From NCBI RefSeq assembly GCF_054482595.1, contig NZ_CM137008.1: 64,000 bases of DNA, one strand, 5' to 3'. Below, one piece after another: positions 21,267 to 56,748 of the stretch. Under the pieces are notes generated by a model. The model saw only the letters and a list, made by a program, of their open reading frames with translations, did not search any database and was not told the DNA's origin. Within the stretch, counting starts at the first letter, position 1. Each line of letters begins with the position of its first letter. The translations under genes and the position numbers were made by a program.

Positions 21267-21410
21267 ACGGTAAAGCCCTCACCGAAGCGAGGGCTTGAAG
21301 GAGAAGGGTTATGATGCGACTTGTCATCATACTGATTGTACTGTTACTCATAAGTTTCAGCGCTTATTAACAGTCAGTCACAGGGGAGGAGCAATCCTCC
21401 CTTACCCTTA
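21267..21410 (-). ncRNA. sibC: Sib-like antisense sRNA (probably SibC), copy 2; ends approximate
   Basis: Minus-strand promoter TTGACA-N17-TAATTT (21445..21417); antisense to ibs ORF; 3' hairpin. Confidence 0.55.
21311..21370 (+). CDS. ibsC: Ibs-family type I toxin, 19 aa (MMRLVIILIVLLLISFSAY), matches my recollection of IbsC
   Basis: Short ORF with AGGAG SD; serA-ygfA intergenic location matches the sibC/ibsC locus. Confidence 0.75.
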   Translation: MMRLVIILIVLLLISFSAY

Positions 21411-27592: not shown

Positions 27593-28687
27593 ATGGCACA
27601 ACAGACTCCTTTGTACGAACAACACACGCTTTGCGGCGCTCGCATGGTGGATTTCCACGGCTGGATGATGCCGCTGCATTACGGTTCGCAAATCGACGAA
27701 CATCATGCGGTACGTACCGATGCCGGAATGTTTGATGTGTCGCATATGACCATCGTCGATCTCCGCGGCAGCCGCACCCGGGAGTTTCTGCGTTATCTGC
27801 TGGCGAACGATGTGGCGAAGCTCACCAAAAGCGGCAAAGCCCTTTACTCGGGGATGTTGAATGCCTCTGGCGGTGTGATAGATGACCTCATCGTCTACTA
27901 CTTTACTGAAGATTTCTTCCGCCTCGTTGTTAACTCCGCCACCCGCGAAAAAGACCTCTCCTGGATTACCCAACACGCTGAACCTTTCGGCATCGAAATT
28001 ACCGTTCGTGATGACCTTTCCATGATCGCCGTACAAGGGCCGAATGCGCAGGCTAAAGCTGCCACACTGTTTAATGACGCCCAGCGTCAGGCGGTGGAAG
28101 GGATGAAACCGTTCTTTGGCGTGCAGGCGGGCGATCTGTTTATTGCCACCACTGGTTATACCGGTGAAGCGGGCTACGAAATTGCGCTGCCCAATGAAAA
28201 AGCGGCGGATTTCTGGCGCGCGCTGGTGGAAGCGGGCGTTAAGCCATGCGGCCTGGGCGCGCGTGACACGCTGCGTCTGGAAGCGGGTATGAATCTTTAT
28301 AGTCAGGAGATGGACGAAACCATCTCTCCTTTAGCCGCCAATATGGGCTGGACTATCGCCTGGGAACCGGCAGATCGTGACTTCATCGGTCGTGAAGCCC
28401 TGGAAGTGCAGCGTGAGCATGGTACAGAAAAACTGGTTGGTCTGGTGATGACCGAAAAAGGCGTGCTGCGTAATGAACTGCCGGTACGTTTTACCGATGC
28501 GCAGGGCAACCAGCATGAAGGCATTATCACCAGCGGGACTTTCTCCCCGACGCTGGGTTACAGCATTGCGCTGGCGCGCGTGCCGGAAGGTATTGGTGAA
28601 ACAGCGATTGTGCAAATTCGCAACCGTGAAATGCCGGTTAAAGTGACGAAACCTGTTTTTGTGCGTAACGGCAAAGCCGTCGCGTGA
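27593..28687 (+). CDS. gcvT: glycine cleavage system T protein (aminomethyltransferase)
   Basis: ORF track 364 aa, [24 protein letters not shown]. Confidence 0.95.
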
Positions 28688-28710
28688 TTTACTTTTTTGG
28701 AGATTGATTG

Positions 28711-29100
28711 ATGAGCAACGTACCAGCAGAACTGAAATACAGCAAAGAACACGAATGGCTGCGTAAAGAAGCCGACGGCACTTACACCGTTGGCATCACT
28801 GAACACGCTCAGGAGCTGTTAGGCGATATGGTGTTTGTTGACCTGCCGGAAGTGGGCGCGACGGTTAGCGCGGGCGATGACTGCGCGGTTGCCGAATCGG
28901 TAAAAGCGGCGTCAGACATTTATGCGCCAGTAAGCGGTGAAATCGTGGCGGTAAACGACGTACTGAGCGATTCCCCGGAACTGGTGAACAGCGAACCGTA
29001 TGCAGGCGGCTGGATTTTCAAAATCAAAGCCAGCGATGAAAGCGAACTGGAATCACTGCTGGATGCGACCGCATACGAAGCATTGTTAGAAGACGAGTAA
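28711..29100 (+). CDS. gcvH: glycine cleavage system H protein (lipoyl carrier)
   Basis: ORF 28708..29100 trimmed by one codon to [16 protein letters not shown] (129 aa). Confidence 0.93.
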
Positions 29101-29217
29101 CGGCTTTATTCCTCTTCTGCGGGAGAGGATCAGGGTGAGGAAATTTACGCCTCACCCTCACTCTCTTCGTAAGGAGAGAGGTTCACAATTCACTGCACGT
29201 TTCAGGAACCATCGCTC

Positions 29218-32091
29218 ATGACACAGACGTTAAGCCAGCTTGAAAATAGCGGCGCTTTTATTGAACGCCATATCGGACCGGACGCCGCGCAACAGCAAGA
29301 AATGCTGAATGCCGTTGGCGCACAATCGTTAAACGCGCTGACCGGCCAGATTGTACCGAAAGATATTCAGCTTGCGACCCCGCCGCAGGTTGGCGCACCG
29401 GCGACCGAATACGCCGCGCTGGCGGAACTCAAGGCTATTGCCAGTCGCAATAAACGCTTCACGTCTTACATCGGCATGGGTTACACCGCCGTGCAGTTAC
29501 CGCCGGTTATCCTGCGTAACATGCTGGAAAATCCGGGCTGGTATACCGCGTATACTCCGTATCAACCTGAAGTCTCGCAGGGCCGCCTTGAGGCACTGCT
29601 CAATTTCCAGCAGGTAACGCTGGATTTAACCGGGCTGGATATGGCCTCTGCTTCTCTTCTTGACGAAGCCACCGCTGCCGCCGAAGCAATGGCGATGGCG
29701 AAACGCGTCAGCAAACTGAAAAATGCCAACCGCTTCTTCGTGGCTTCCGATGTGCATCCGCAAACGCTGGATGTGGTCCGTACTCGTGCCGAAACCTTTG
29801 GTTTTGAAGTGATTGTCGATGATGCGCAAAAAGTGCTCGACCATCAGGACGTCTTCGGCGTGCTGTTACAGCAGGTTGGCACTACCGGTGAAATTCACGA
29901 CTACACTGCGCTTATCAGCGAACTGAAATCACGCAAAATTGTGGTCAGCGTTGCCGCTGATATTATGGCGCTGGTGCTGTTAACTGCGCCGGGTAAACAG
30001 GGCGCGGATATTGTTTTTGGTTCGGCGCAACGCTTTGGCGTACCGATGGGTTACGGTGGCCCACACGCGGCATTCTTTGCGGCGAAAGACGAATACAAAC
30101 GCTCAATGCCAGGCCGTATTATCGGTGTATCGAAAGATGCAGCTGGCAATACCGCGCTGCGCATGGCGATGCAGACTCGCGAGCAACATATTCGTCGTGA
30201 GAAAGCGAACTCCAACATTTGTACTTCCCAGGTGCTGCTGGCAAACATCGCCAGCCTGTATGCCGTTTATCACGGCCCGATTGGCCTGAAACGTATCGCT
30301 AACCGCATTCACCGTCTGACCGATATCCTGGCGGCAGGCCTGCAACAAAAAGGTCTGAAGCTGCGCCATGCGCACTATTTCGACACTCTGTGTGTGGAAG
30401 TGGCCGACAAGGCGGGCGTACTGGCGCGTGCCGAAGCGGCTGAAATCAACCTGCGTAGCGATATCCTGAACGCGGTGGGGATCACCCTTGATGAAACCAC
30501 CACGCGCGAAAACGTGATGCAGCTTTTCAGCGTACTATTGGGGGATAATCACGGGCTGGACATCGACACGCTGGACAAAGACGTGGCTCACGACAGCCGC
30601 TCTATCCAGCCTGCGATGCTGCGCGACGACGAAATCCTCACCCATCCGGTGTTTAATCGCTACCACAGCGAAACCGAAATGATGCGCTATATGCACTCGC
30701 TGGAGCGTAAAGATCTGGCGCTGAATCAGGCGATGATCCCGCTGGGTTCCTGCACCATGAAACTGAACGCCGCCGCCGAGATGATCCCAATCACCTGGCC
30801 GGAATTTGCCGAACTGCATCCGTTCTGCCCGCCGGAGCAGGCCGAAGGTTATCAGCAGATGATTGCGCAGCTGGCTGACTGGCTGGTGAAACTGACCGGT
30901 TACGACGCCGTTTGTATGCAGCCGAACTCTGGCGCACAGGGCGAATACGCGGGCCTGTTGGCGATTCGTCATTATCATGAAAGCCGCAACGAAGGGCATC
31001 GCGATATCTGCCTGATCCCGGCTTCTGCGCACGGCACTAACCCTGCTTCTGCACATATGGCAGGAATGCAGGTGGTGGTTGTGGCATGTGATAAAAACGG
31101 CAACATCGATCTGGCTGATCTGCGCGCGAAAGCGGAACAGGCGGGCGATAACCTCTCCTGTATCATGGTGACCTATCCTTCCACCCACGGCGTGTATGAA
31201 GAAACGATCCGTGAAGTGTGTGAAGTCGTGCATCAGTTCGGCGGTCAGGTTTACCTTGATGGCGCGAACATGAACGCCCAGGTTGGCATCACCTCGCCGG
31301 GCTTTATTGGCGCAGACGTTTCACACCTTAACCTGCATAAAACTTTCTGCATTCCGCACGGCGGTGGTGGTCCGGGTATGGGACCGATCGGCGTGAAAGC
31401 GCATCTGGCTCCGTTTGTACCGGGTCATAGCGTGGTGCAAATCGAAGGCATGTTAACCCGTCAGGGCGCGGTTTCTGCGGCACCGTTCGGTAGCGCCTCT
31501 ATCCTGCCAATCAGCTGGATGTACATCCGCATGATGGGCGCAGAAGGGCTGAAAAAAGCAAGCCAGGTGGCAATCCTCAACGCCAACTATATTGCCAGCC
31601 GCCTGCAGGATGCCTTCCCAGTGCTGTATACCGGTCGCGACGGTCGCGTGGCGCACGAATGTATTCTCGATATTCGCCCGCTGAAAGAAGAAACCGGCAT
31701 CAGCGAGCTGGATATTGCCAAGCGCCTGATCGACTACGGTTTCCACGCGCCGACGATGTCGTTCCCGGTGGCGGGTACGCTGATGGTTGAACCGACTGAA
31801 TCTGAAAGCAAAGTGGAACTGGATCGCTTTATCGACGCGATGCTGGCTATCCGCGCAGAAATTGACCAGGTGAAAGCCGGTGTCTGGCCGCTGGAAGATA
31901 ACCCGCTGGTGAACGCGCCGCACATTCAGAGCGAACTGGTCGCCGAGTGGGCGCATCCGTACAGCCGTGAAGTTGCGGTATTCCCGGCAGGCGTGGCAGA
32001 CAAATACTGGCCGACGGTGAAACGTCTGGATGATGTTTACGGCGACCGTAACCTGTTCTGCTCCTGCGTACCGATTAGCGAATACCAGTAA
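29218..32091 (+). CDS. gcvP: glycine dehydrogenase (decarboxylating), glycine cleavage P protein
   Basis: ORF track 957 aa, [22 protein letters not shown]. Confidence 0.95.
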
Positions 32092-32135: not shown

Positions 32136-32216
32136 AGCTTGTTAATAAAGTGCGCTTTGTGTGTTTCGGCTGAGGCGTAATATAAAATCTTGCGAGCTCA
32201 ATATATTAAAAGAGTG

Positions 32217-32250
32217 CCAGGCCTGATGAGCGTATCGCATCAGGCACATC
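32217..32250. repeat. REP-like palindrome (gcctgatgagcgtatcgcatcaggc) downstream of bglA
   Basis: GCCTGATG...CATCAGGC arms. Confidence 0.5.
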
Positions 32251-56698: not shown

Positions 56699-56748
56699 CT
56701 TCTTTCCTTATTTAACCCTCTTCCCTGCGGGAAGAGGGCATCTGTCAT

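Follow-up and report, generated by a model that had tools for sequence, protein, structure and literature searches.

The window, that is, the whole 64-kb stretch of DNA that was analyzed, comes from Escherichia coli and contains the gcvTHP genes, all of them on the plus strand. The feature studied here lies in the spacer between gcvH and gcvP, whose surroundings are as follows:

27593..28687, plus strand: gcvT
28711..29100, plus strand: gcvH coding sequence, 129 amino acids plus stop (from the open reading frame list, the sequence, matches to GcvH relatives, and the RefSeq annotation of identical E. coli loci)
29182..29217, plus strand: conserved gcvP leader (GTTCACAATTCACTGCACGTTTCAGGAACCATCGCTC), outside the repeat described below (from spacer comparison and alignment)
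29218..32091, plus strand: gcvP coding sequence, 957 amino acids, downstream of the spacer

The limits of the spacer (117 nt) were as the original prediction had drawn them, with the gcvH stop codon at positions 29098 to 29100 and the gcvP ATG at 29218. The Shine-Dalgarno (SD) sequence of gcvP (AGGA, 29204 to 29207) falls inside the 36-nt leader, to which conservation of the spacer across Enterobacteriaceae is confined. A literature search for a described gcvH-gcvP stem-loop, or for a mention of gcvH in the main texts of Term-seq studies, yielded nothing relevant.

Three inverted repeats had been noticed in the spacer from the sequence alone, and our check of the sequence found all of them in place: cctct/agagg (29111-29115 with 29124-29128), gggtgagg/cctcaccc (29133-29140 with 29150-29157, a perfect 8-bp stem), and ctctct/agagag (29161-29166 with 29175-29180). 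The actual stems are somewhat longer than first described, with 8, 9, and 8 bp, respectively:

29110..29129, plus strand: hairpin 1, TCCTCTTC-TGCG-GGAGAGGA, 29110-29117 pairing with 29122-29129 (8 bp, one U.G wobble)
29132..29158, plus strand: hairpin 2, AGGGTGAGG-N9-CCTCACCCT, 29132-29140 pairing with 29150-29158 (9 bp, -15.2 kcal/mol)
29161..29180, plus strand: hairpin 3, CTCTCTTC-GTAA-GGAGAGAG, 29161-29168 pairing with 29173-29180 (8 bp, one U.G wobble)

The minimum free energy structure of the 117-nt spacer consisted of exactly these three hairpins (-44.4 kcal/mol). The fold had a z score of -4.36, with none of 200 dinucleotide shuffles folding as well, and ensemble folding in a 200-nt context gave stem pairing probabilities of 0.86 to 1.0. 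Taken singly, hairpin 1 had an energy of -11.8 kcal/mol as sense RNA and -6.5 as antisense, and hairpin 3 had values of -12.2 and -6.8, respectively. The pattern GGGTGAGG-N3-15-CCTCACCC occurred once in the 64-kb window, versus 0.00 occurrences expected. The hairpins had also been described as lacking a U-run and, hence, as something other than canonical intrinsic terminators, and this agrees with a terminator scan that called no plus-strand site between 29101 and 29217; the same scan does call sites in the Providencia and Photorhabdus spacers. When positions 28000 to 30000 were scanned against Rfam 15 at permissive E values, only chance-level matches appeared and none reached the gathering score, the best being whalefall-1 (19.8 bits, gathering score of 37) and MIR5516 (19.9 bits, gathering score of 93).

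Two further regularities of the spacer had been missed. Hairpins 1 and 3 repeat one another (direct repeat D1), and the whole 72-nt block is one large imperfect palindrome (I1, with 29-nt arms). Such symmetry is the hallmark of two repeat units in inverted arrangement. The family it recalls, known as BoxC, PIT, or TMECO, has reportedly been treated also by Bachellier/Gilson in the 1990s and by Hoyne and Maher in 2000. All three names stand for one dispersed intergenic palindromic repeat of enterobacteria, with the TMECO unit consensus 5'-CCCTCNCCC-N3-6-GGGNGAGGG-N3-GGGNGAGGG-3', and for MG1655, 23 strict copies have been listed, along with five sites at which two units face each other (Holder et al. 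2015, PMC4666352). In the canonical unit, CCCTCNCCC and GGGNGAGGG form a hairpin, and a third block, again GGGNGAGGG, comes after it. Thus, two converging units generate three hairpins, one from each unit and, between them, one from the facing third blocks, and the same three-hairpin architecture was found in the four K-12 canonical pairs that we read (1+2, 7+8, 10+11, and 12+13).

The gcvH-gcvP spacer follows this plan. Its blocks come in the order pyrimidine arm, loop, GGAGAGG, 3-nt linker, GGGTGAGG, centre, CCTCACCC, linker, and mirror hairpin, and the three-block unit (pyrimidine arm, loop, GGGAGAGG, 3-nt linker, and GGGTGAGG) is that of the BoxC family. Hairpin 1 corresponds to blocks 1 and 2 of a forward unit and hairpin 3 to blocks 1 and 2 of a reverse unit, while hairpin 2 is built from the two facing third blocks (GGGTGAGG), its loop being the variable centre of the pair. 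As in the K-12 pairs at the five sites mentioned above, the element is intergenic and its two units converge and share the central hairpin. We searched for such units with a covariance model (R1), a single-unit model made from 12 K-12 TMECO copies, all of them at other loci, which was run over the whole window without filters. Its only two full-length matches were the two converging units of the spacer:

29110..29142, plus strand: forward BoxC/PIT/TMECO-like unit (R1, 18.7 bits, E = 0.003, model positions 1 to 36)
29148..29180, minus strand: reverse BoxC/PIT/TMECO-like unit, converging with the former (R1, 16.3 bits, E = 0.012, model positions 1 to 36)

Elsewhere in the window, the model gave only a partial match to the hairpin half (56713-56739), and with an nhmmer profile of all 23 TMECO copies, the best match in the window was also in the spacer (E value of 0.012).

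The scores of the E. coli units were modest (16 to 19 bits, versus 37 to 53 for canonical copies). We also applied R1 to 80 gcvH loci of other species (269 kb; Salmonella, Klebsiella, Escherichia albertii, and Escherichia fergusonii are outside this set), and every match fell inside the gcvH-gcvP spacer, with canonical pairs of 37 to 53 bits at the same spacer position in Enterobacter cloacae, E. asburiae, Pseudocitrobacter, Buttiauxella, and others. Over its first 81 nt, the E. coli spacer aligned end to end with the canonical spacer of E. cloacae (61 of 81 positions identical, z = 21), and alignments to canonical BoxC-pair spacers had z values of 15 to 21, in contrast to values between -2 and 0 for REP-type or other spacers. 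The identity rose to 67 of 81 positions with the spacer of a cryptic-clade Escherichia, which has TTA linkers, and intermediate BoxC forms were found at locus L004 (TTA linkers) and in Siccibacter.

Measured against the strict TMECO consensus, the forward unit had 7 mismatches and the reverse unit 6, each over 24 specified positions, and the significance of a scan on this basis is weak, with ca. 0.2 sites of 6 mismatches or fewer expected per shuffled window. We considered the strict scan too rigid and the covariance model, combined with alignment to orthologous canonical pairs, more informative. Several features set the E. coli gcv copy apart from canonical BoxC. Its stems are enriched in AT and contain U.G wobbles, its central loop has 9 nt rather than 16 to 27, and its linkers are TCA and TGA, neither type A (TTA) nor type B (CCG), so that the rule pairing a TTA with a CCG linker does not hold. 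Nor does the genome contain a close paralogue of this variant. When 90 nt of the spacer were used as a blastn query, 5425 of 5426 complete E. coli genomes gave one match each; thus, this variant is not itself a multicopy subfamily, although the family is multicopy. The gcvH-gcvP element is absent from the list of 23 MG1655 TMECO copies. K-12 pair 10+11, located just downstream of gcvP, is a different, canonical pair, and the window strain lacks both this pair and ygfF just downstream of gcvP. Given the departure from the strict consensus on the one hand and the homology on the other, the stretch from 29110 to 29180 is, as judged by sequence comparison, a decayed family member, that is, a diverged single-copy descendant of an inverted BoxC pair and not a canonical copy.

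An identity as REP/BIME was also considered and rejected. The E. coli spacer lacks the REP consensus (of the GCCGGATG...CATCCGGC type, with a conserved GTAG/CTAC end), and alignment to the REP-type spacers of Citrobacter and Lelliottia gave z values of -2.1 to -0.9.

Across species, the position behind gcvH was filled in different ways. About a dozen species had BoxC pairs or single BoxC hairpins; REP/BIME elements were found in Citrobacter, Lelliottia, Trabulsiella, and some Enterobacter, and ERIC-like elements in C. koseri, C. youngae, and Kluyvera. Outside the core Enterobacteriaceae (Photorhabdus, Providencia, Yersinia, Pectobacterium, Dickeya, Pantoea, Shewanella, Alishewanella, and Aliidiomarina), a GC-rich hairpin with a T-run behind it, resembling an intrinsic terminator, was found 30 to 45 nt past the gcvH stop. 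Erwinia and Rosenbergiella have almost no gcvH-gcvP spacer, and every locus retrieved with the exact GcvH sequence had the E. coli-type 117-nt spacer. The E. coli element resembles these terminators in its position after the gcvH stop and in its strong GC-rich hairpin, but it has no T-run and consists of three repeat-derived hairpins instead of one. Among the 76 spacers of at least 25 nt, 75% had a fold z score below -2 (median of -2.8) despite their unrelated sequences, so that structure in this slot is nearly universal and its sequence is not. These comparisons show behind gcvH a slot that turns over between repeat types and terminator-like hairpins.

This turnover bears on the proposal, contained in the original prediction, that the hairpins modulate gcvP translation. 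A dedicated cis-regulator of this kind, controlling ribosome access to gcvP or translational coupling, would be in keeping with the stability of the hairpins and with their location in the gcvP 5' leader within the operon. However, the last hairpin ends 23 nt upstream of the gcvP SD, ensemble folding predicted no pairing of any hairpin with the SD or the AUG, and there is no match to an Rfam family. What is conserved alongside gcvP is the 36-nt leader and not the hairpins, since in sister genera, the upstream part of the spacer is taken up by unrelated repeats of the REP or ERIC-like kind or by a hairpin resembling a terminator. We therefore regard translational control of gcvP as very improbable. 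Occlusion of the SD by the hairpins was examined by ensemble folding and discarded, since local contacts keep the SD mostly paired whether the hairpins are there or not. The element is thus neither a sequence-specific regulator of gcvP nor a gcv-specific riboregulator.

Among BoxC-type spacers, pairing is maintained: 86.7% of cells were paired, versus 56 to 73% in slid controls, and 7 pairs had changed on both sides. As this count does not distinguish selection at the RNA level from the palindromy of a DNA repeat, it was given little weight.

The other role that had been suggested, in mRNA processing or stability, receives backing from published Term-seq data for MG1655, in which a curated RNA 3' end lies at position 3049097 on the minus strand (Adams et al. 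2021, Supplementary file 1). We transferred this end to the window and verified the mapping:

29162, plus strand: equivalent of the MG1655 3' end 3049097(-), the T of CCUCACCCUCACU, with the RNA ending in ...CCUCACCCUCACU-3'

The dominant in vivo end is therefore located 4 to 5 nt past hairpin 2. It has three listings in the three-condition table, with two scores of 412,219 and 171,112, and is ca. 11 times higher than the end at the operon terminator behind gcvP (score of 36,065) (Adams et al. 2021). Its classification as "orphan" is due only to its distance of more than 50 bp from gcvH (Adams et al. 2021). The end at gcv is one of the strongest near gcv among such "orphan" or "antisense" ends. 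At least five other BoxC-type copies adjoin 3' ends in the same Adams 2021 dataset, four of them 3 to 5 nt past the hairpin (847200, 3781065, 3959467, and 4231270) and one ca. 11 nt past it (632098). Thus, a 3' end beside the hairpin appears to be a property of the BoxC family and not a peculiarity of gcv.

Ends of this kind are known in E. coli, where steady-state 3' ends sit directly past stable stem-loops without U-tracts that shield the RNA from PNPase and RNase II (Dar and Sorek 2018, PMC6061677). The gcv end, a few nucleotides past a stem-loop without a U-rich stretch, has the position typical of this exonuclease-protective class, with the differences that it is internal to the operon and not operon terminal and that no Rho dependence was found at the coordinates searched. 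There is also a likeness to REP/BIME, which are likewise dispersed palindromic repeats transcribed within operons, with stable hairpins lacking a U-run and an RNA 3' end just downstream, and which fill the same gcvH-gcvP slot in the genera listed above; the E. coli spacer differs in having neither the REP consensus (GCCGGATG..., ...CCGGCCTAC) nor any similarity to REP-type spacers. An mRNA-stabilizing role of intercistronic REP, e.g., in malE-malF, was reportedly described by Newbury et al. in 1987.

These data led us to the following model. Since the block lies inside the gcvTHP transcript, it is transcribed and folds into three stable RNA hairpins. After endonucleolytic cleavage or termination further downstream, the hairpins would block 3'-to-5' exonucleases, in the manner of REP elements and of the protective stem-loops of Rho-dependent transcripts, and the product would be an abundant RNA ending 4 to 5 nt past hairpin 2, the strongest of the three. 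We infer that exonuclease stalling, rather than termination, makes the 3049097 end, and we consider it probable, although well short of certain, that the element is a decayed BoxC pair whose transcribed hairpins act as an exonuclease barrier defining a stable 3' end. One observation counts against a barrier: an exonuclease should meet hairpin 3 before hairpin 2, yet the curated end follows hairpin 2. Given that the Term-seq dataset keeps only the strongest peak within 100 bp, the order of the two hairpins lies beyond its resolution. Nor does the peak speak to the length of the RNA, which could be a short inert decay remnant.

In order to put a possible effect on gene expression into perspective, we used synthesis rates from ribosome profiling, which amount to 941 copies per generation for GcvT, 4002 for GcvH, and 836 for GcvP (Li 2014, via Mori 2021 Dataset EV6). 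GcvH is made 4 to 5 times more than GcvP, but GcvT, which is also encoded upstream of the element, is made at about the GcvP rate. The near equality of GcvT and GcvP argues against a strong polarity effect on functional mRNA, and a large effect on the translated message is unlikely. A putative effect on GcvT/GcvH/GcvP output would favor the upstream gcvT-gcvH message.

The same rates weigh on another explanation of the 3' end, namely, that hairpin 2 or the whole block acts as an internal attenuator, causing partial termination or pausing, so that the end would be the primary termination product. The great strength of the E. coli end speaks for it, as do the pyrimidine-rich tail past hairpin 2 (UCACUCUCUU) and the terminator-like hairpin with T-run found in the same slot in relatives outside the core Enterobacteriaceae. 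On the other hand, GcvP is synthesized at about the rate of GcvT, the spacer has no U-tract and no called terminator, and the 3049097 end is not in the table of Rho-termination regions for the coordinate prefixes searched (Adams 2021 Supplementary file 2). PIT elements had earlier been found to act neither as promoters nor as terminators and to leave RNA polymerase unaffected (according to Holder et al. 2015, PMC4666352). On balance, we hold attenuation to be unlikely.

More weight attaches to the view that the block is an inert relic, a decaying selfish or neutral repeat without consequence for gcv expression, with the Term-seq signal as a nuclease-resistant decay fragment. For BoxC copies, no link to gene function, orientation, or distance to open reading frames is seen, and earlier functional assays were negative (Holder 2015, PMC4666352). 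The drift of the sequence from the family consensus, the presence of different repeats or none at this site in different genera (Erwinia and Rosenbergiella being almost without a spacer), and the nearly equal synthesis of GcvT and GcvP all point in the same direction. Against this view stands the pattern of variation within E. coli. The eight core pairs per stem were invariant in every allele read, while the loops varied, that of hairpin 2 with five variants and that of hairpin 3 with GTAA or GCAA; one allele had a changed linker base plus a changed closing A-U pair of hairpin 2. In both decayed unit hairpins, a U.G wobble on the mRNA strand corresponds to a C.A mismatch on the other strand, and because both stems keep these wobbles, pairing being retained on the mRNA strand only, the sense RNA folds better (-40.6 kcal/mol) than the antisense (-29.8 kcal/mol). 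As a sign of constraint, the sense-strand wobbles are suggestive, with only two events to count. Nearly every lineage, moreover, keeps a strong hairpin in the slot (the median fold z score of -2.8 given above), in many cases a terminator-like one. Together, these observations are suggestive of selection on structure and not of neutrality alone, and we rate the inert relic as possible but less than likely.

The repeat might instead act as DNA, in a non-B form (an intrastrand triplex or a cruciform) with an effect on replication, on recombination, or on the stability of the genome at this place. In vitro, intrastrand triplexes are formed by TMECO oligonucleotides (of the purine motif, with 9 triads in canonical copies), and TMECO loci have undergone more rearrangement among E. 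coli strains; no triplex was found in vivo (Holder et al. 2015, PMC4666352). In the forward unit, a hand count gave 7 of 9 allowed triads (G*G-C, A*A-T, and T*A-T), one of them over a T.G mismatch, and the T.G mismatches in the DNA hairpins count against such a role. In one E. coli genome (VTB96775v), a palindrome-mediated inversion with duplication has taken place within this very element, and the lack of the canonical pair and ygfF behind gcvP in the window strain would also fit a DNA-level role. The VTB96775v rearrangement echoes the instability that Holder et al. 2015 tied to TMECO repeats. Yet, the element is almost invariant and occurs once in 5425 of the 5426 complete genomes, so that this copy must be called stable rather than unstable. 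A DNA-level role thus seems decidedly unlikely here, and it would be compatible with the exonuclease barrier that we favor.

Extending that barrier model beyond E. coli, we put forward, tentatively and with more doubt than conviction, that the slot is under selection for a strong 3'-end-forming hairpin throughout Gammaproteobacteria. An ancestral terminator or attenuator would have been replaced repeatedly by BoxC, REP, or ERIC-like elements that landed there, BoxC would generally be a REP-like determinant of mRNA 3' ends and stability, and the E. coli copy would be kept as an RNA structure, as its sense-strand U.G wobbles hint, while its identity as a DNA repeat decays. Should the hairpins stabilize the message upstream of them, terminator, REP, ERIC-like, and BoxC sequences would be interchangeable in the gcvH-gcvP slot, which would offer a clean natural experiment.

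What had looked like a conspicuous structure in a textbook operon is thus explained as derived from a repeat and not as a dedicated riboregulator, which guards against overinterpretation, and a published 3' end at gcvH-gcvP that had been left uninterpreted acquires a context. It also has a practical side, as expression constructs carrying gcvTHP, e.g., for engineering of the reductive glycine pathway, take along the element and its 3' end. To our knowledge, BoxC/PIT/TMECO repeats have no known function, none having been demonstrated for 30 years. The analysis newly connects this apparent lack of function with another published fact, the strong "orphan" and "antisense" Term-seq 3' ends just past BoxC hairpins. 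Two observations are worth following up, namely, the apparently general coincidence of stable RNA 3' ends with BoxC hairpins and the convergent filling of the post-gcvH slot by terminators, REP, ERIC-like elements, and BoxC. If the upstream message is indeed stabilized by the hairpins, BoxC would, like REP, be a domesticated element of mRNA ends.

The 36-nt gcvP leader (window 29182-29217) is nearly invariant in Enterobacteriaceae, and alignment of the spacers showed that all sequence 5' of it is swapped. RNA folding predicted for this leader a small local hairpin (UUCACUG...CAGGAA) in which the Shine-Dalgarno sequence would be partly sequestered. Among the alleles of the gcvH-gcvP element, that of E. 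coli VTB96775v (L090; NZ_CP178634.1, 855422-855582) is rearranged and ca. 50 nt longer, with hairpin 3 apparently inverted and followed by an extra copy of hairpin 2, an arrangement that looks like the product of a template-switch or palindrome-mediated event. Another locus, L096 (GCA_046506925.1), had a 1-nt deletion in the spacer together with fragmented gene calls for gcvT and gcvP. Since these defects are most likely homopolymer sequencing errors, the locus was left out of the allele comparison.

Scanning the window with the BoxC covariance model, built from 12 K-12 TMECO copies at other loci, also matched the following features.

20880-21340: two tandem copies of a unit, at a spacing of 392 nt, each encoding the 19-aa peptide MMRLVIILIVLLLISFPAY
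56713-56739: perfect 10-bp hairpin, CCCTCTTCCC-TGC-GGGAAGAGGG, in a 50-nt gap separating two minus-strand ORFs

The tandem copies were detected as identical weak matches, and their unit resembles a type I toxin-antitoxin repeat in which an Ibs toxin is paired with the cognate Sib antisense RNA. At 56713-56739, it was the hairpin half of the model that matched, on both strands, with E values of about 0.001 to 0.003; read on the minus strand, the hairpin is followed by TTA. By size and synteny, the flanking ORFs look like ssnA and ygfM, with xdhD next. This hairpin may be a solo BoxC remnant at another intercistronic site.

Published Term-seq data for K-12 MG1655 (Adams 2021) place further RNA 3' ends in the gcv operon, at 3050723(-), ca. 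56 nt before the gcvT start codon (roughly window 27537), at 3050602(-), ca. 66 nt into gcvT (roughly window 27658), and, within gcvP, at 3048758. These ends could arise if transcripts terminate prematurely, or are processed, within the leader of gcvT. Supplementary file 1 of the same study lists a 3' end at 2945855(-), where we found a partial BoxC-like sequence, TTAGGGTGAGGG-ATAA-CCTCGCCC, followed by TTTTT. Here, a terminator-like hairpin appears to have recruited a BoxC third block.

Downstream of gcvP, 3' of its terminator, ca. 1 kb of the K-12 sequence (L001; 3045158-3046100) is missing from the window, comprising ygfF and the canonical TMECO/BoxC inverted pair 10+11. In its place are ca. 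94 bp (window 32138-32231) that contain a REP-like palindrome, gcctgatgagcgtatcgcatcaggc, and are immediately followed by bglA. The absence of ygfF and pair 10+11 fits the published variability near BoxC loci.
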